17,042 nt of DNA from a virus (taxonomy: Duplodnaviria; Heunggongvirae; Uroviricota; Caudoviricetes): the IMG/VR virus record IMGVR_UViG_2617270978_000019, one strand, 5' to 3'. Both the position numbers and the translations under genes were made by a program. Position 1 is the first letter of the stretch. Each line of letters starts with the position of its first letter. The notes below the pieces were generated by a model. That model saw only the letters and a program-made list of their open reading frames with translations, had not been told where the DNA came from and searched no databases. Below, one piece after another: positions 7,780 through 16,613 of the stretch.

Positions 7780-8076
7780 TTATACCTCTGAATCAATATC
7801 AACCTGGTGGTGAGCAATGGTTTCAACCATGTACTGGATGTGTTCTGCCATGCGCTCCTGAAACTCAACATCGTCATCAAACGCACGGGTAATGGCTTTT
7901 TTGCTGGCCCCGTGGCGTTGCAAATGATCGATGCATAGCGATTCAAACAGGTGCTGGGGCAGGCCTTTTTCCATGTCGTCTGCCAGTTCTGCCTCTTTCT
8001 CTTCACGGGCGATCTGCTGGTAGTGACGCGCCCAGCTCTGAGCCTCAAGACGATCCTGAATGTAATAAGCGTTCAT
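7780..8076 (-). CDS. gam: Gam (RecBCD inhibitor), short form only
   Basis: 98-aa [24 protein letters not shown] with AGGAGG Shine-Dalgarno; in-frame stop 19 codons upstream so no long Gam form. Confidence 0.93.
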
Positions 8077-8151
8077 GGCTGACCTCCTGAAAATGGCTGT
8101 GAAAATATCGCCCGCGAAATGCCAGGCTGATTAGGAAAACAGGAAAGGGGA

Positions 8152-8442
8152 TTAGTGATTCAGGCCGTTACCGCGTCCGTCGAGAAAAACTTCCACGAGC
8201 AAATCACGGGTATAAGTGCGCTCGATGCCGCGATGCAGATAAAGCCGTCCGCGTAAATTAGCTGATGCAGTCCAGGTACCATCTTTGTGTTTGACCAGCA
8301 TTCCTGGCATGACCGCACCTCGATTAACGGTCTGCGTTCCATAATGTTGATGAACCATAAAAACTCCTGCCCGTAAGCTGGGCTGCTGAACATATAGAGA
8401 CTTCTGCGCGTATTCAGGCGGTGGATGGCCGCCGGTTGTCAT
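8152..8442 (-). CDS. Hypothetical protein in the kil/cIII position (start uncertain; may begin at internal Met near 8301)
   Basis: 96-aa ORF ending 76 bp upstream of the gam start, as lambda kil does; no similarity recognised to lambda Kil or CIII; an alternative overlapping frame (8160-8393) exists. Confidence 0.4.
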
Positions 8443-8628
8443 AACTAAGCCGCCTCGTTGAAGCGACTAAGGTATGAAATGTTGAGTTAATTTCAGCTGG
8501 TCACACCGACGTTCACGCGTCCGTTTCACCCCTCGCACTCCCCGAAGCCTGCTGAAATTCAAACTGCGGATCTAAGCGGTCATCGCAACGGTGAATCAGG
8601 TAGTTGCCGTATCGTTGTGTTGTTGCGA

Positions 8629-8692
8629 TGAACTTATTTAAAACTATAGTTGTTTTATCGTCAACAACAAAAGTTGTTTTATTGGTTGTTTT
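8629..8692 (-). promoter_or_regulatory. OL/PL: leftward early promoter with operator repeats
   Basis: Minus-strand TTGACG (plus 8659-8664), 17-bp spacer, TTAAAT (plus 8636-8641); overlapping AAAACAAC / GTTGTTTT operator half-sites repeated 3-4 times, same motif as at OR. Confidence 0.65.
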
Positions 8693-8807
8693 AGATATAA
8701 CTGGTTGTATTTAGGATGGATTTATTTTGTGACTTGAATCGCATAGCGATAACTGAAGCGAGGTTATGGTGGTTTTTTTAACGGTGTGTGTGTGATGAGG
8801 GGAGGGC

Positions 8808-8834
8808 AAAAGAAAACCCGGCACGGTGACCGGG
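8808..8834 (-). terminator. Intrinsic terminator downstream of the repressor gene
   Basis: Minus-strand hairpin CCCGG-ucaccgug-CCGGG followed by TTTTCTTTT. Confidence 0.6.
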
Positions 8835-8955
8835 ATTCTTACGCCGTTAGGTAAAGATATTATTGCGGTGGCTTAATATTACTACCTAGAGCAAAGATAG
8901 GAATTAGTTCTTTACTGAATGAGCACAATGCCCAGTTGATAATTTTTAATTGGTA

Positions 8956-9645
8956 CTACCCATGCTTCCTATATGTCTGCGGCATGCTCCCAATAACCTT
9001 ACCGAAGATGAACACCCGGTTCATCTCGTCTTTCTCGATCGGGTCCCACGGTGAGTAGCTTTTGTTATCAGAGATGACCAGCAGCTTATCCTTCATCATT
9101 TGCAGGCGCTTTACATGGGCTGTGTCGTCGTACAGAAACGCATAGATACCATCACCGTCGAAAGATTTAACTGTGATATCAACGAACAGCAGATCACCTG
9201 GTTCGATCGTTCCTGACATGCTGTCACCACGCACGTTAATGATGCGGATATTTTCCGCCTTCCTACCATCGAACATGTGACGAGCATCGTCAAACGAGTA
9301 CTCAACCGAGCGTAGAACTTCTACAAACTCACGGTTGATGACTCCCGGCCCAGCACTGACTTCTATATCAAGAACGTCAATCTTGAAGTATTTGGAATGG
9401 CTGACAGTTGATTGTATTGGTTGCACTGTACTGTCTGACATATTTCCAACGCCAGAAGATAACCATTCTGCGCGCACACCCAAAGCGTTCGCGATCTCCA
9501 CGATTTTAGTTGTTTGATTAGCTTTCCCTGTTTCGATTTTCTGAATAGCAGCCTGGCTAACCCCGACCAAATCCCCAAGCGCCTTTTGTGTAAGGCCTCG
9601 CGCTAATCTGGCTTCTTTAAGTCTTTCTGAGAGTGTTGTTTTCAT
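8956..9645 (-). CDS. CI-type prophage repressor (N-terminal XRE HTH, C-terminal S24 LexA-like autopeptidase)
   Basis: Start at Met MKTTLSERLKEARLARGLTQKALGDLVGVSQAAIQKIE (HTH); C-terminal GDSM serine motif and HVKRL lysine of the Ser-Lys dyad; near-leaderless start downstream of PRM-like promoter. Confidence 0.9.
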   Translation of the reverse strand: MKTTLSERLKEARLARGLTQKALGDLVGVSQAAIQKIETGKANQTTKIVEIANALGVRAEWLSSGVGNMSDSTVQPIQSTVSHSKYFKIDVLDIEVSAGPGVINREFVEVLRSVEYSFDDARHMFDGRKAENIRIINVRGDSMSGTIEPGDLLFVDITVKSFDGDGIYAFLYDDTAHVKRLQMMKDKLLVISDNKSYSPWDPIEKDEMNRVFIFGKVIGSMPQTYRKHG

Positions 9646-9729
9646 AGTCCAAATGTACAACCAAGGTTTTATCCCATCAAACGAAAATGGTTGTTGACTA
9701 AAAACAACCATAGTTTTAATCTTGATTCA
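9646..9729. promoter_or_regulatory. OR region with divergent PRM and PR and palindromic operator
   Basis: PR: TTGACT (9694-9699), 17 bp, TAATCT (9717-9722); PRM on minus: TTGATG (plus 9675-9680), 17 bp, TACATT (plus 9652-9657), 6 nt before repressor ATG; palindrome ATGGTTGTT-n7-AACAACCAT (9687-9711). Confidence 0.7.
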
Positions 9730-9749
9730 AATTAACCACGGAGGTTGTT

Positions 9750-9980
9750 ATGAACCCAGCTATCAAAACAGCGATCAATATCGTTGGTTCACAAAAGAAA
9801 CTGGGCGCTGCTTGCGAAGTTTCACAGCAGGCCGTCTATAAGTGGCTTCACAACAAAGCAAAGGTATCCCCTGAACATGTCGGCAGCATTGTTACGGCTA
9901 CTGGTGGAGTAGTGAAGGCATACCAGATTCGCCCGGATCTTCCGAAGTTGTTTCCACACACCGAAAAGAACGCAGCTTAA
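9750..9980 (+). CDS. Cro-like HTH regulator (YdaS/Cro family)
   Basis: 76-aa ORF divergent from repressor, GGAGG Shine-Dalgarno; HTH segment QKKLGAACEVSQQAVYKWL. Confidence 0.85.
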   Translation: MNPAIKTAINIVGSQKKLGAACEVSQQAVYKWLHNKAKVSPEHVGSIVTATGGVVKAYQIRPDLPKLFPHTEKNAA

Positions 9981-9992
9981 ATTTCCATTTCA

Positions 9993-10005
9993 CGCTCTTT
10001 AACAA
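9993..10005 (+). promoter_or_regulatory. boxA-like element (CGCTCTTTAACAA) downstream of cro
   Basis: Contains GCTCTTTAACAA, identical to the rrn-type boxA consensus core, at the position of lambda nutR; no convincing boxB hairpin follows. Confidence 0.5.
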
Positions 10006-10049
10006 TAAGCAATCAACTTAACAGTCAATTCAAACTAAAGGAGTCAATT

Positions 10050-10589
10050 ATGCAACCACTTACATACCAACAGACTAGCGGATTTAGCCCGACTGCGGTG
10101 ATAAATCGTTCTCAAACAAAACAGGTGCCAGGCCACGAAAAAATCCGTGATGCCGTCCGCGCCTGGTCGGCTGTAGATAATCAGGATGTCGTTGCCACAC
10201 TCATTGTGAATGAGTATCGGGAGCAGGGCGGCGGCACCATCGATTTCCCTGATGATGTCAGCCGTGCACGCCAGAAGCTGTTCCGCTTCCTCGATAACAA
10301 ATTCGATTCTGAAAAATACCGAAATAACGTGCGTGAACTGACCCCGGCAATTCTGGCGGTACTACCGCTGGAATATCGCGGTTACCTGGTTGAGCAGGAT
10401 AGCTTCATGGCTAGGTTGGCTGAAATGGAAAAGGAACTCAGTGAGGCAAAACAGGCTGTCATTCTCAACGCACCACGCCACCAGAAACTGAAGGAAATTA
10501 GTGAAGGTATTGTGTCGATGTTTCGTGTGGACCCAGATCTGGCTGGTCCATTGATGGCGATGGTTACTACCATGCTGGGGGCGATATGA
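10050..10589 (+). CDS. Regulatory protein in the cII position (YdaT/CP76-type CII-like, not lambda CII)
   Basis: 179-aa ORF with AAGGAG Shine-Dalgarno, located between cro-like and O; family assignment from memory only. Confidence 0.5.
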   Translation: MQPLTYQQTSGFSPTAVINRSQTKQVPGHEKIRDAVRAWSAVDNQDVVATLIVNEYREQGGGTIDFPDDVSRARQKLFRFLDNKFDSEKYRNNVRELTPAILAVLPLEYRGYLVEQDSFMARLAEMEKELSEAKQAVILNAPRHQKLKEISEGIVSMFRVDPDLAGPLMAMVTTMLGAI

Positions 10590-10675
10590 CAGGTTCAGAA
10601 ATGGCGAAAGCCGGTCTGCTGGAACAGAACCGACTTTCAGGTGCAAATCGTAACACACTCATTGCGGGAGGAATT

Positions 10676-11605
10676 ATGGCAAACACTGCTGAGATATTCA
10701 ATTTTCCAGTGCCGGATGCGGCACAAAAGGAGCCGCGCGTGGCAGATCTCGATGATGGTTATACGCGCATTGCAAATGAGTTGCTGGAAGCTGTGATGCT
10801 GGCCGGATTAACACAGCACCAGCTTCTGGTCTTTCTGGCTGTCATGCGCAAAACATATGGCTTTAATAAAAAACTGGATTGGGTTAGCAACGAGCAACTT
10901 TCCGAATTAACCGGGATATTGCCGCACAAGTGTTCTGCTGCAAAAAGTGTTCTGGTAAAGCGTGGGATTTTTATTCAGAGCGGGCGGAATACCGGCATTA
11001 ATAATGTGGTCAGTGAATGGTCAACATTACCCGAATCAGGTAAGAAAAATAAAGTTTACCTGAAAGAGGTAAATTTACCTGAATCAGGTAAAAAAAGTTT
11101 ACCCACATCAGGTAAAGGCGTTTACCCGAATCAGGTAAACACAAAAGACAAACTAACAAAAGACAATATAAAACCTTTTTCGTCCGAGAATTCTGGCGAA
11201 TCCTCTGACCAACCAGAAAACGATCTTCCTGTGGTGAAACCGGATGCTGCAATTCAGAGCGGCAGCAAGTGGGGGACAGCAGAAGACCTGACCGCCGCAG
11301 AGTGGATGTTTGACATGGTGAAGACCATCGCGCCATCAGCCAGAAAACCGAATTTTGCAGGGTGGGCTAACGATATCCGCCTGATGCGTGAACGTGACGG
11401 ACGTAACCACCGCGACATGTGTGTGCTGTTCCGCTGGGCATGCCAGGACAACTTCTGGTCCGGTAACGTGCTAAGTCCGGCCAAACTCCGCGACAAGTGG
11501 ACCCAGCTCGAAATCAACCGAAACAAGCAACAGGCTGGCGTGATAGCCGGCAAACCAAAACTCGACCTGACGAACACTGACTGGATTTACGGGGTGGAGC
11601 TATGA
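10676..11605 (+). CDS. O: Replication initiator O (lambda O family)
   Basis: Start MANTAEIFNFPV with GGGAGG Shine-Dalgarno; N-terminal domain resembles lambda O (ADLDDGY, RKTYG); internal iterons; overlaps P start. Confidence 0.9.
   Translation: MANTAEIFNFPVPDAAQKEPRVADLDDGYTRIANELLEAVMLAGLTQHQLLVFLAVMRKTYGFNKKLDWVSNEQLSELTGILPHKCSAAKSVLVKRGIFIQSGRNTGINNVVSEWSTLPESGKKNKVYLKEVNLPESGKKSLPTSGKGVYPNQVNTKDKLTKDNIKPFSSENSGESSDQPENDLPVVKPDAAIQSGSKWGTAEDLTAAEWMFDMVKTIAPSARKPNFAGWANDIRLMRERDGRNHRDMCVLFRWACQDNFWSGNVLSPAKLRDKWTQLEINRNKQQAGVIAGKPKLDLTNTDWIYGVEL
11027..11139. repeat. Replication origin iterons: five 19-bp copies of TTTACC(C/T)GAATCAGGTAAA-like repeat, followed by AT-rich tract to about 11185
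   Basis: Repeats at 11027, 11055, 11074, 11098 and 11121, each internally palindromic; located inside O as in ori-lambda. Confidence 0.85.
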
Positions 11606-12602: not shown

Positions 12603-12619
12603 TGAAACAGGTGAGTTGA

Positions 12620-12654
12620 GTTCAAACTGTAGTACAATTCTCTCCAGTTTGAAC
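12620..12654. repeat. Perfect 10-bp inverted repeat GTTCAAACTG-n15-CAGTTTGAAC between ren and emrE
   Basis: Read directly; sits 18 bp after ren stop and 16 bp before emrE ATG; no T-run follows. Confidence 0.8.
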
Positions 12655-12669
12655 AGGAAAGAATATGCT

Positions 12670-13002
12670 ATGAATCCTTATATTTATCTTGGTGGTGCAA
12701 TACTTGCAGAGGTCATTGGTACAACCTTAATGAAGTTTTCAGAAGGTTTTACACGGTTATGGCCATCTGTTGGTACAATTATTTGTTATTGTGCATCATT
12801 CTGGTTATTAGCTCAGACGCTGGCTTATATTCCTACAGGGATTGCTTATGCTATCTGGTCAGGAGTCGGTATTGTCCTGATTAGCTTACTATCATGGGGA
12901 TTTTTCGGCCAACGGTTGGACCTGCCAGCCATTATAGGCATGATGTTGATTTGTGCCGGTGTGTTGGTTATTAATTTATTGTCACGAAGCACACCACATT
13001 AA
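12670..13002 (+). CDS. emrE: SMR-family multidrug efflux transporter EmrE
   Basis: 110-aa product MNPYIYLGGAILAEVIGTTLMKFSEGFTRLWPSVGT, four TM helices, matches E. coli EmrE. Confidence 0.95.
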   Translation: MNPYIYLGGAILAEVIGTTLMKFSEGFTRLWPSVGTIICYCASFWLLAQTLAYIPTGIAYAIWSGVGIVLISLLSWGFFGQRLDLPAIIGMMLICAGVLVINLLSRSTPH

Positions 13003-13257
13003 AAATAATTTGTTTTTAAACGACTAAAATATGGAGGTTCGTATATTTATATGGGCCTCGTTTTATGCTTTTTGTTAATGTCTTTAGTTTTTATTCATTC
13101 TTTTGTGCTTTCAGGATTATGGTGTAAGAAAATTGCAATACGATTATTGTTGTATATTTAAGATAATGTGACCTTAATTGTCTTTTTAAATAAAAATTAA
13201 ACAAAAATCATATCTCACCACTAAGGTTTATAAAAGCATACTTTAGCAGGTGTCACC

Positions 13258-14784
13258 ATGAAAAAAGCCATAGCATATATGCGATTTTCATCACCAGGTC
13301 AGATGTCTGGTGATTCATTAAACCGCCAGAGAAGGCTTATTACTGAATGGCTAAAGGTAAATAGTGATTATTACCTTGATACCGTAACGTATGAAGATTT
13401 GGGGTTAAGCGCATTCAATGGAAAGCATGCACAATCAGGAGCTTTTTCGGAATTTTTAGATGCTATAGAACATGGTTATATATTGCCAGGGACTACATTG
13501 TTAGTTGAAAGTCTGGACAGACTTTCAAGAGAAAAAGTCGGTGAAGCGATTGAGCGTCTGAAATTGATTTTGAATCACGGTATTGATGTTATAACTCTTT
13601 GCGATAATACAGTCTATAATATTGACTCATTGAATGAGCCATATTCATTAATAAAAGCCATACTTATAGCACAAAGGGCAAATGAAGAAAGCGAGATAAA
13701 GTCAAGTCGGGTTAAATTATCATGGAAGAAAAAACGGCAGGATGCACTGGAGTCAGGCACGATTATGACGGCGTCTTGTCCGAGATGGCTCTCATTGGAT
13801 GACAAAAGAACGGCTTTTGTTCCAGACCCCGACAGGGTGAAAACTATTGAGCTAATTTTTAAACTCAGGATGGAAAGGCGCTCATTGAATGCAATAGCCA
13901 AGTATTTAAATGATCATGCTGTAAAGAATTTCTCAGGAAAAGAAAGTGCATGGGGACCTTCTGTAATTGAAAAATTATTAGCGAATAAAGCTCTGATAGG
14001 TATATGCGTACCTTCATATCGTGCAAGAGGTAAAGGAATAAGTGAAATCGCTGGCTATTATCCCAGAGTCATATCAGATGATTTGTTTTACGCTGTGCAG
14101 GAAATTCGGTTGGCACCTTTTGGTATTAGCAATAGTAGCAAAAATCCTATGTTGATAAATCTACTTCGAACAGTTATGAAGTGCGAGGCTTGTGGTAATA
14201 CCATGATTGTTCATGCGGTATCTGGAAGTTTGCATGGCTATTATGTTTGTCCGATGAGAAGACTGCATCGATGTGACAGGCCATCAATAAAGAGAGATTT
14301 GGTTGATTATAATATCATTAATGAGTTGCTTTTTAATTGTAGTAAAATCCAACCAGTTGAAAACAAGAAAGATGCTAATGAAACTTTAGAGTTGAAAATT
14401 ATTGAGCTCCAGATGAAAATTAATAATTTAATTGCTGCATTATCTGTTGCGCCTGAAGTTACCGCTATAGCAGAAAAAATCAGAGTATTAGATAAGGAAT
14501 TACGAAGGGCTTCTGTATCATTAAAAACTTTGAAGAGTAAAGCGGTGAGTTCACTTGGTGATTTTCATGCTATTGACTTAACCAGTAAAAATGGGCGAGA
14601 GCTATGTCGTACACTTGCCTATAAAACATTCGAAAAAATCATAATCAATACAGATAATAAAACCTGTGATATCTATTTTATGAATGGCATTGTTTTTAAA
14701 CACTATCCTTTAATGAAAACAATATCCGCCCAGCAGGCGATAAGTACTCTCAAATATATGGTTGATGGTGAGGTTTATTTTTGA
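13258..14784 (+). CDS. ybcK: Large serine recombinase (YbcK-type)
   Basis: 508-aa ORF; N-terminal resolvase domain with catalytic-serine context AYMRFSSPGQ, central recombinase domain, CEACGN...CPMRRLHRC zinc ribbon, C-terminal coiled coil; low GC. Confidence 0.9.
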   Translation: MKKAIAYMRFSSPGQMSGDSLNRQRRLITEWLKVNSDYYLDTVTYEDLGLSAFNGKHAQSGAFSEFLDAIEHGYILPGTTLLVESLDRLSREKVGEAIERLKLILNHGIDVITLCDNTVYNIDSLNEPYSLIKAILIAQRANEESEIKSSRVKLSWKKKRQDALESGTIMTASCPRWLSLDDKRTAFVPDPDRVKTIELIFKLRMERRSLNAIAKYLNDHAVKNFSGKESAWGPSVIEKLLANKALIGICVPSYRARGKGISEIAGYYPRVISDDLFYAVQEIRLAPFGISNSSKNPMLINLLRTVMKCEACGNTMIVHAVSGSLHGYYVCPMRRLHRCDRPSIKRDLVDYNIINELLFNCSKIQPVENKKDANETLELKIIELQMKINNLIAALSVAPEVTAIAEKIRVLDKELRRASVSLKTLKSKAVSSLGDFHAIDLTSKNGRELCRTLAYKTFEKIIINTDNKTCDIYFMNGIVFKHYPLMKTISAQQAISTLKYMVDGEVYF

Positions 14785-15963: not shown

Positions 15964-16157
15964 TTTTCAGCACATTTGATTTCCAATAATCAACCAGCCA
16001 TAATCATGCCATTGGAGCCTGAACAACTCCGGTGACTTCTGCGCTAAACGGGGACGTTTATGCGCACATACAAACCAACCTATCTTCTCCATTCACAGAT
16101 GCAGAAATGCACCTGCGATATATTGTATCCAGCGTTTGACCTCTGCGGAGGTGAAGC

Positions 16158-16613
16158 GTGAATCTCCCACAAGATGGCATCAAATTACATCGCGGTAACT
16201 TCACCGCTATCGGTCGGCAGATCCAGCCTTATCTGGAGGAGGGCAAATGCTTTCGCATGGTGCTTAAACCGTGGCGTGAGAAACGCAGTCTTTCCCAGAA
16301 TGCACTCAGCCACATGTGGTACAGCGAAATCAGTGAATACCTCATCAGCAGGGGTAAAACGTTCGCTACTCCAGCTTGGGCAAAAGATGCTCTCAAACAC
16401 ACATATCTCGGTTATGAAACCAAAGACCTGGTTGATGTCGTAACCGGTGATATCACCACTATCCAGTCGTTACGCCATACCTCCGATCTTGATACCGGAG
16501 AGATGTATGTCTTCCTGTGTAAGGTTGAAGCCTGGGCGGTGAATATTGGCTGCCACCTGACTATTCCGCAGAGCTGCGAGTTCCAGCTGCTCCGCGACAA
16601 GCAGGAGGCGTAA
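16158..16613 (+). CDS. ninB: NinB-family recombination protein (YbcN-like)
   Basis: 151-aa ORF, GTG start with GGAGG Shine-Dalgarno; [20 protein letters not shown] aligns with the lambda NinB RSLDQN region. Confidence 0.7.

Follow-up and report, generated by a model that had tools for sequence, protein, structure and literature searches.

Does a boxA sequence of the ribosomal type which follows cro in the early region of a phage, with neither a boxB nor an N gene, still engage the host Nus factors on its own, or is it what remains of a nut site? A first-pass annotation based on the letters of the DNA had put forward both possibilities for an element located in the rightward operon of the IMG/VR virus record IMGVR_UViG_2617270978_000019, a stretch of 17,042 nucleotides which was analyzed here as a whole (hereafter called the window, to which all positions refer unless a locus is named).

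The window corresponds to the early region of a lambdoid phage. The interval 8900–10700 shows 99.9% identity to Escherichia phage PhiR34_1, and IdasGreatGrand, PhiR5_1, and Bievrevirus phages such as 4A7 are also close kin of this early region. The features surrounding the element are listed in Table 1. Past ydaT, the rightward operon continues with O, P, ren, an EmrE/QacE-like gene, and a DLP12-like nin region. In the interval 12616–13059, ren is followed by the EmrE/QacE-like gene, which belongs to the small multidrug-resistance type. The only convincing terminator-like hairpin identified on the + strand of the rightward operon (13034–13059) occurs past this gene, and a DLP12-like serine recombinase gene (13258–14784) lies downstream of the hairpin.

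Table 1. Coordinates of the boxA element and of the neighboring features of the window.
Feature	Position	Strand	Remarks
exo-bet-gam		−	same strand as the Kil-like gene
Kil-like gene, first of the PL operon	8152..8442	−	PHROG 294; no arginine-rich motif
PL and its leader (about 190 nt)	8443..8664	−	no boxA, no boxB
PL promoter	8664–8659 (TTGACG), 8641–8636 (TTAAAT)	−	read from the sequence
Terminator after cI	8834–8817
cI-like repressor, immunity module	8956..9645	−	PHROG 4 / 6201
Operator inverted repeat	9687–9711		PR lies inside it; PL has the same architecture
PR promoter region	9694..9722	+	TTGACT 9694–9699; AT-rich −10 region 9715–9722; read from the sequence
cro, YdaS family, 76 aa	9750..9980	+	Pfam PF15943, PHROG 35
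C-rich, G-poor 70-nt stretch	9954..10023	+	20 C, 6 G; spans boxA
boxA, CGCTCTTTAACAA	9993..10005	+	12/12 match to the rrn boxA core and to the GYTCTTTAANA consensus
Spacer, AT-rich, in the place of boxB	10006..10049	+	unstructured according to folds
ydaT Shine-Dalgarno, AGGAG	10039–10043	+
ydaT, cII-analogue regulator, 179 aa	10050..10589	+	Pfam PF06254, PHROG 163; begins the ydaT-O-P-ren module

Sequence and Surroundings of the boxA Element

The sequence GCTCTTTAACAA occurs only once in its exact form in the window, on the + strand at positions 9994–10005, and is preceded by the C at 9993. No exact match was obtained in 200 dinucleotide-preserving shuffles of the window, the chance expectation being about 0.002 per window; a search in which two mismatches were allowed was uninformative, since 1.8 chance matches are then expected in the window. 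The search for a second boxA was negative for the window, the leftward leader, and the remainder of the PhiR34_1 genome alike. The element starts 12 nt past the cro stop codon, ends about 44–45 nt before the ydaT ATG, and is located at a distance of about 265 nt from PR on the rightward early transcript; it is untranslated, and no ORF of the + strand extends over 9993–10005. The perfect match to GYTCTTTAANA (GCTCTTTAACA, 9994–10004) begins at −56 relative to the ydaT ATG. The element is nearer to the rrn consensus than the boxA of lambda nutR (CGCTCTTACACA), and those of P22 nutR (CGCTCTTTACCA) and P22 nutL (CGCTCTTTAACT) are also slightly further from this consensus. The first-pass annotation was thus right in describing an exact rrn-type core which resembles the ribosomal consensus more closely than that of lambda, and in placing it at the position of nutR, given that the boxA of relatives is found 7–24 nt past the cro stop.

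The 70-nt stretch spanning boxA (Table 1) is the most C>G-skewed stretch of this length in the rightward operon and is unstructured, so that a rut-like, Rho-loading site at this position is plausible in view of its composition. This arrangement is comparable to that of lambda, in the annotation of which rutA and rutB flank nutR.

The 13-mer might also act at the DNA level, as part of a YdaT-dependent leftward promoter (the equivalent of PRE) or as a YdaT operator, or it might be a mere coincidence. The interval from ydaS to ydaT in CP-933P contains PRE and a YdaT footprint of about 95 bp (PMC8630535, PMC9986795); this is in line with a role of this kind, as is the recurrence of TTAACAAT and TTAACAGT in the spacer, with a third copy in one variant. 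However, there is no TTGATT-N6-AATCAA sequence with two mismatches or fewer over boxA and no credible leftward promoter is readable there, the low chance expectation given above argues against coincidence, and the positional homology with nutR in relatives carrying a lambda-type cII (see below) explains the motif fully. We therefore grant these readings next to no probability. Two specific candidates were rejected: a YdaT operator over boxA, where the best match to TTGATT-N6-AATCAA has three mismatches, which is the chance level, and a leftward PRE-like promoter, for which no convincing pair of hexamers was read from the sequence.

By analogy with CP-933P, the cro-ydaT spacer is where a YdaT-dependent PRE would be expected. 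AGTCAATT forms a direct repeat (10023–10030 and 10042–10049) flanking the ydaT Shine-Dalgarno, and TTAACA(A/G)T is recurrent in the spacer. Far downstream, an exact copy of the CP-933P YdaT operator consensus TTGATT-N6-AATCAA (TTGATTTCCAATAATCAA) is present on the + strand at 15976–15993, where it coincides with a promoter-like TTGATT-17-CATAAT (15976–16004) located about 165 nt upstream of an ORF with a sub-threshold NinB match (16158–16613); this site is a candidate for a promoter under YdaT control within the nin region.

Absence of boxB, nutL, and N

The 80 nt starting at 9981 were found to fold at −4.1 kcal/mol, as shuffled sequences do (z = 0.0), and the 45 nt 3′ of boxA at −1.7 kcal/mol, which makes it the least stable of all 42 boxA-type sites folded (39 from related loci, along with lambda nutR, P22 nutR, and P22 nutL). 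No TGTGTGGG-like boxC was found on reading 10006–10120 directly, nor any hairpin upstream of the boxA. On the leftward side, the − strand at 8100–8660, which includes the PL leader, carries no boxA-like sequence which could correspond to nutL. The PHROG scan of the window yielded no N gene, the first gene after PL being Kil-like, and tblastn searches with nine proteins (six N-like proteins from relatives, lambda N, P22 gp24, and HK022 Nun) produced no hit in either the window or the complete PhiR34_1 genome, although they did recover the positive control. Searches in Rfam gave nothing meaningful, either at the gathering threshold over the whole window or at E ≤ 10 over 8000–10300. Two further statements of the first-pass annotation, that no GC-rich boxB follows the boxA and that no N gene is present, are therefore confirmed.

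An unrecognized phage factor or a non-hairpin RNA element might nevertheless cooperate with boxA in a non-canonical nut site, in which case dedicated antitermination would have been kept. The great diversity of N and boxB among the relatives described below is compatible with this idea, and so is the PL leader, which is conserved over its approximately 190 nt and holds a 31-codon arginine-rich ORF. However, the leftward transcript contains no boxA, the rightward operon has no further copy of the PL leader, nothing resembling the HK022 put RNAs was found, neither an N/Nun homolog nor an Rfam match was identified, and the 31-codon ORF has no Shine-Dalgarno and shows a mixture of synonymous and non-synonymous substitutions. 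A site of this kind seems to us highly improbable.

HK022 is also a lambdoid phage without N which must express its delayed-early genes, as the phage of the window must, and its put RNAs are structured two-stem elements acting in cis and independently of N, whereas the boxA region of the window is unstructured. The put RNA was rejected as a candidate, as no putL/putR similarity was found anywhere in the window.

The PL leader (8443–8632, − strand) is 94–100% conserved among hetero-immune phages, in which the similarity begins right at the predicted transcription start. It includes a 10-bp stem (CATCGCAAC...GTTGCGATG) and a hairpin beside the ribosome-binding site, its stability being no better than that of shuffled sequences (z = −0.6). 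Its arginine-rich ORF (8467–8562) starts with a TTG codon.

Relatives of the cro Gene and Origin of the Element

Homologs of Cro were collected, 27 were aligned, and 45 loci were fetched from species-representative genomes. A boxA (with two mismatches at most) is present 7–24 nt past the cro stop in at least 16 of these 45 cro-family loci, which belong to other species, and in nearly all these cases it is followed within a few nt by a hairpin (−3.4 to −17.2 kcal/mol). These boxB-like hairpins include GCTCTGAAGAAGAGC in a Serratia locus, which is like that of lambda nutL, CCGCCGACAACGCGG, which is identical to the boxB of P22 nutR, and (G)CCCTCGGAAC(A/T)CCAGGG(C) in Pantoea, Erwinia, and Buttiauxella. 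Most of the boxA-bearing loci have another boxA just past cI on the other strand, in the place of nutL, and in all five loci tested the gene downstream of this nutL boxA is N-like (PHROG 271) and has an arginine-rich motif at its start. In locus L029, a lambda-N-like ORF with an arginine-rich start also matches PHROG 271, and no nutL boxA was detected there. The N proteins and the boxB sequences of the cro-family relatives are very diverse.

When the ends of the cro genes were aligned along with the downstream sequences, which is the comparison with nutR regions recommended in the first-pass annotation, GCTCTT was found to be invariant in the relatives, P22, and lambda. The window follows the cro family through ...GCTCTTTAACAAT (...AACAAT) and then diverges completely, right 3′ of the boxA. 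Like lambda, P22, and the N-encoding cro relatives, it therefore has an untranslated boxA of the CGCTCTT(T)A type 7–24 nt past the cro stop; the nutR of lambdoid phages is accompanied by a boxB, an N gene, and a nutL partner, whereas the window has none of the three, and the downstream gene is ydaT instead of the lambda-type cII of the nutR relatives. Because of this shared place after cro and of the alignment with the relatives, P22, and lambda, the boxA is the positional homolog of the nutR boxA belonging to the cro module, and it very probably originated as a nutR remnant. The relic nut site envisaged in the first-pass annotation is thus well supported as regards its origin, since the element occupies the nutR position of N-encoding cro relatives and its partners are all missing.

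The conservation of the motif in relatives, to which the same annotation attached importance, turned out to be partial: it holds for the 16 or more cro-family loci mentioned above, but not for the closest cro relatives outside E. coli (79–86% identity; Klebsiella, Kosakonia, Enterobacter, and Serratia sp. Ag1), in which no intact boxA follows cro. The locus of Serratia sp. Ag1 (L010) has GCTTAATAACAG (about 2735–2746) in the nutR boxA position, 7 nt past the end of cro. This sequence has the appearance of a decayed boxA; in this lineage, a gene start now follows it at 13 nt, and an exact boxA has been kept on the leftward side of the locus (669, − strand). Five other loci (L007, L009, L025, L033, and L035) show the reverse mosaic of the window, with a leftward (nutL) boxA and none detected within 160 nt after cro. 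L013 and L045 were rejected as independent cases of a boxA without N, the flanks fetched being too short to exclude an N gene further to the left.

Proposed Modular Exchange and Distribution in E. coli

The explanation we favor, to which we assign a probability of about 0.55 when the residual activity considered below is included, is that an ancestral nutR was divided and that its boxA half was kept with the cro/immunity module while the neighboring modules were swapped. On the left side, the N-nutL module would have been replaced by the N-less PL-leader-kil module; on the right side, boxB-(tR1)-cII would have been replaced by the ydaT-O-P module, with a break immediately 3′ of the boxA. The element would then be a clean natural case of a nut site dismantled by modular exchange, the break falling right at the conserved boxA.

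Phage 4A7 has the PL leader, kil, ydaT, O, P, and ren in common with the window and differs from it in the immunity region and cro. In 4A7, cro is followed by a 30-nt spacer without any boxA, and the two sequences become similar again precisely at the ydaT ATG. Since 4A7 has the same right-hand module without the boxA, the module of the window works boxA-free in a sibling phage; the boxA is evidently dispensable.

A single fixed unit, consisting of the 3′ end of cro, the boxA, the spacer, and the first part of ydaT, is present in 1515 of the 5426 complete E. coli genomes (about 28%); when delimited as 9700–10060, the cro-boxA-ydaT unit was counted in 1515–1524 of these genomes, including those of O157:H7 strains. 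The unit is at least 99% identical in 1466 of the 1515 genomes, and a 12-nt spacer insertion occurs in 47. This insertion (TTAACAGACTGA, L053/L133) adds a third copy of the spacer repeat. The end of cro, the boxA, and the spacer co-occur without exception in the 1515 genomes, and the 44-nt spacer was not found in any other context, but only with the window-type cro. Any Nus-dependent effect of the boxA would therefore touch a very common prophage switch.

Among the 80 IMG/VR copies, there are about five types of intergenic variants, one of which lies inside the boxA (GCTCTTTGACAA); a single boxA-hitting type is approximately the neutral expectation for 12 of 69 nt. No signal of selection on the boxA was detected among these 80 copies and the 1515 E. 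coli copies, all of which are too similar to be informative: the E. coli copies being nearly identical, their conservation therefore carries no information. That the function of the boxA is maintained by selection is in our opinion doubtful.

These data also bear on the possibility that the element is an inert relic, a young leftover to which Nus factors may bind without any measurable effect on expression, growth, or lysogeny. The consensus boxA on nascent RNA has recruited the Nus complex wherever this was tested, as at rrn and suhB (PMC5725501, PMC4807359), and a 12/12 match located in a rut-like stretch is unlikely to be fully silent. On the other hand, the sibling phage 4A7 does without a boxA in front of the same downstream operon, the copies give no signal of selection, the nearest relatives outside E. 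coli either have no boxA or have a decayed one (L010), and boxB, boxC, nutL, and N are all missing; in addition, with an identity of more than 99% within E. coli, the module has had little time to decay. We consider complete inertness to be a serious alternative, although a rather unlikely one.

Comparison with Known boxA Systems

Besides the rrn operons and suhB, CRISPR leaders are another locus at which a boxA recruits the Nus complex. The boxA of the rrn leaders and spacers (rrnTAC) is identical to that of the window over 12–13 nt (GCTCTTTAACAA(T)). In the rrn operons, it lies in an untranslated leader or spacer with a boxB upstream and a GU-rich boxC downstream, whereas that of the window lies between the translated cro and ydaT genes and has neither. 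The Kd of NusB:NusE is about 8 nM with the rrn boxA, as compared with 80–90 nM with the lambda nut boxA (PMC2800207), and the boxA-nucleated Nus complex prevents Rho-dependent termination in rrn operons (PMC4807359, PMC6614797).

In the explanation favored above, the boxA would belong to the RNA made whenever PR is active, in an untranslated part some 265 nt downstream of the transcription start, and this rrn-type boxA RNA would bind the host NusB-S10 and could nucleate a NusA/NusG/SuhB complex on RNA polymerase without the help of N. Since the boxA is a high-affinity rrn-type sequence, tight NusB-S10 binding is to be expected, and it is likely to occur in vivo. Our best guess as to the consequence is a modest, non-essential drop in Rho-dependent termination at the cro/ydaT junction (the equivalent of tR1), as in rrn operons. 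Some residual N-independent antitermination at this boxA in the present-day phage is plausible, given the rrn-type sequence, the rut-like stretch around it, and the occurrence of boxA-only sites in N-less phages such as T7; the boxA-free operon of 4A7 and the lack of a selection signal among the copies speak against it. The chances that the boxA has any measurable effect on downstream expression are in our estimate slightly short of even. The direction of any such effect is unpredictable from the sequence alone, because the rrn boxA opposes Rho termination but the suhB boxA promotes it. It is on the whole unlikely that the orphan boxA is a fully working N-independent site of Nus recruitment, making the PR operon resistant to Rho or controlling the level of YdaT. 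If it does work independently of N, the early development of the phage would be coupled to the ribosome-biogenesis machinery of the host without any phage antiterminator protein. Transcription of the boxA might also compete with the rrn operons for NusB during induction.

The suhB gene is the sole tested precedent for a boxA located just upstream of a protein-coding gene, and the outcome there is repression, the opposite of the antitermination envisaged in the first-pass annotation: the Nus complex formed at the boxA represses translation, and Rho termination is promoted (PMC5725501). This repression is maintained when the boxA and the Shine-Dalgarno are as much as 100 nt apart, and the rut site overlaps the boxA (PMC5725501). 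The 5′ UTR of suhB (Baniulyte et al., 2017) resembles the window in having a GYTCTTTAANA boxA shortly before the Shine-Dalgarno and a pyrimidine-rich, G-poor stretch. The published search for sites of this type covered 50 nt before the start codon; the motif of the window, at −56, is just beyond this range, yet inside the functional range of 100 nt (PMC5725501).

A Nus complex formed at the boxA of the window might accordingly loop the RNA to the polymerase and block the ydaT Shine-Dalgarno, which lies 33 nt past the boxA; there would then be less YdaT, the cII analogue, and Rho termination would be polar on O and P. The choice between lysis and lysogeny would in that case be tied to the Nus and ribosome-biogenesis status of the host. 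The match to GYTCTTTAANA about 44–45 nt before the ydaT ATG, the distance tolerated at suhB and the overlap between rut and boxA there, the rut-like composition around the boxA, and the weak complementarity of the boxA to the ydaT Shine-Dalgarno are all compatible with repression of this kind. However, the pairing between the boxA and the Shine-Dalgarno is no stabler than in shuffled sequences (z = 0), a translated gene, cro, terminates 12 nt upstream of the boxA, which is not the case in the suhB 5′ UTR, and a decrease in O and P would hurt lytic growth; we regard this reading as improbable. A switch based on the pairing of GCUCUUU (9994–10000) with AAAGGAGU (10037–10044; −4.1 kcal/mol, z = 0) was rejected.

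Sites consisting of a boxA only are thus already known in rrn and suhB, and the element of the window is not of a new kind; its distinguishing feature is its probable past as a stripped nutR.

boxA-Only Sites in Other Phages Without N

A search with a short query showed the presence of the same 14–18 nt in unrelated phages. In T7 (L257), CGCTCTTTAACAATCTGG occurs at 812–829 (boxA 812–824), between the annotated A3 promoter, which is about 63 nt upstream, and gene 0.3. In K1E (L135), a promoter-like TTGACA-17-TACATT is followed about 35 nt later by CACGCTCTTTAACAATAG, and a second boxA is located just ahead of the first early ORF (about 2003–2018 and 2164–2176, respectively), while in PJNS034 (L134), TTGACA-17-TAAGAT is followed about 15 nt later by CGCTCTTTAACAAT (about 2005–2018). 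The scan of IMG/VR for CGCTCTTTAACAAT gave at least 120 stretches, and 76 distinct contexts were analyzed among the matches listed. Among these listed matches, 44 of the 76 contexts look non-coding; 20 of these 44 (L138–L210) lie 20–57 nt past a sigma-70-like site scoring 9–12 of 12, and 13 have no downstream hairpin.

T7, K1E, PJNS034, and the IMG/VR contigs resemble the window in that an exact CGCTCTTTAACAAT is present in an early transcript of the host RNA polymerase without any N gene. The T7-type sites are located about 15–65 nt past a strong sigma-70 promoter or promoter-like site and before the first gene, whereas that of the window is about 265 nt from PR and after cro. The rrn-type boxA without boxB or N is therefore a recurrent sequence motif in phage early transcripts, which suggests that phages may commonly use the host Nus machinery without N. 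The literature searched contained nothing on an N-independent boxA in lambdoid phages, nor on boxA in SP6/K1E. Together with the leaders of T7, K1E, and the viral contigs, the boxA of the window raises the question, which we did not find addressed in that literature, as to whether N-less phages routinely borrow the rrn antitermination of their host. In five of the IMG/VR contigs (L143, L149, L160, L168, and L170), a hairpin, AAGCGCCCTATAGGACGCTT, is present immediately upstream of CGCTCTTTAACAATCTGG, which corresponds to the order found in rrn operons (boxB followed by boxA) and not to that of lambdoid phages.
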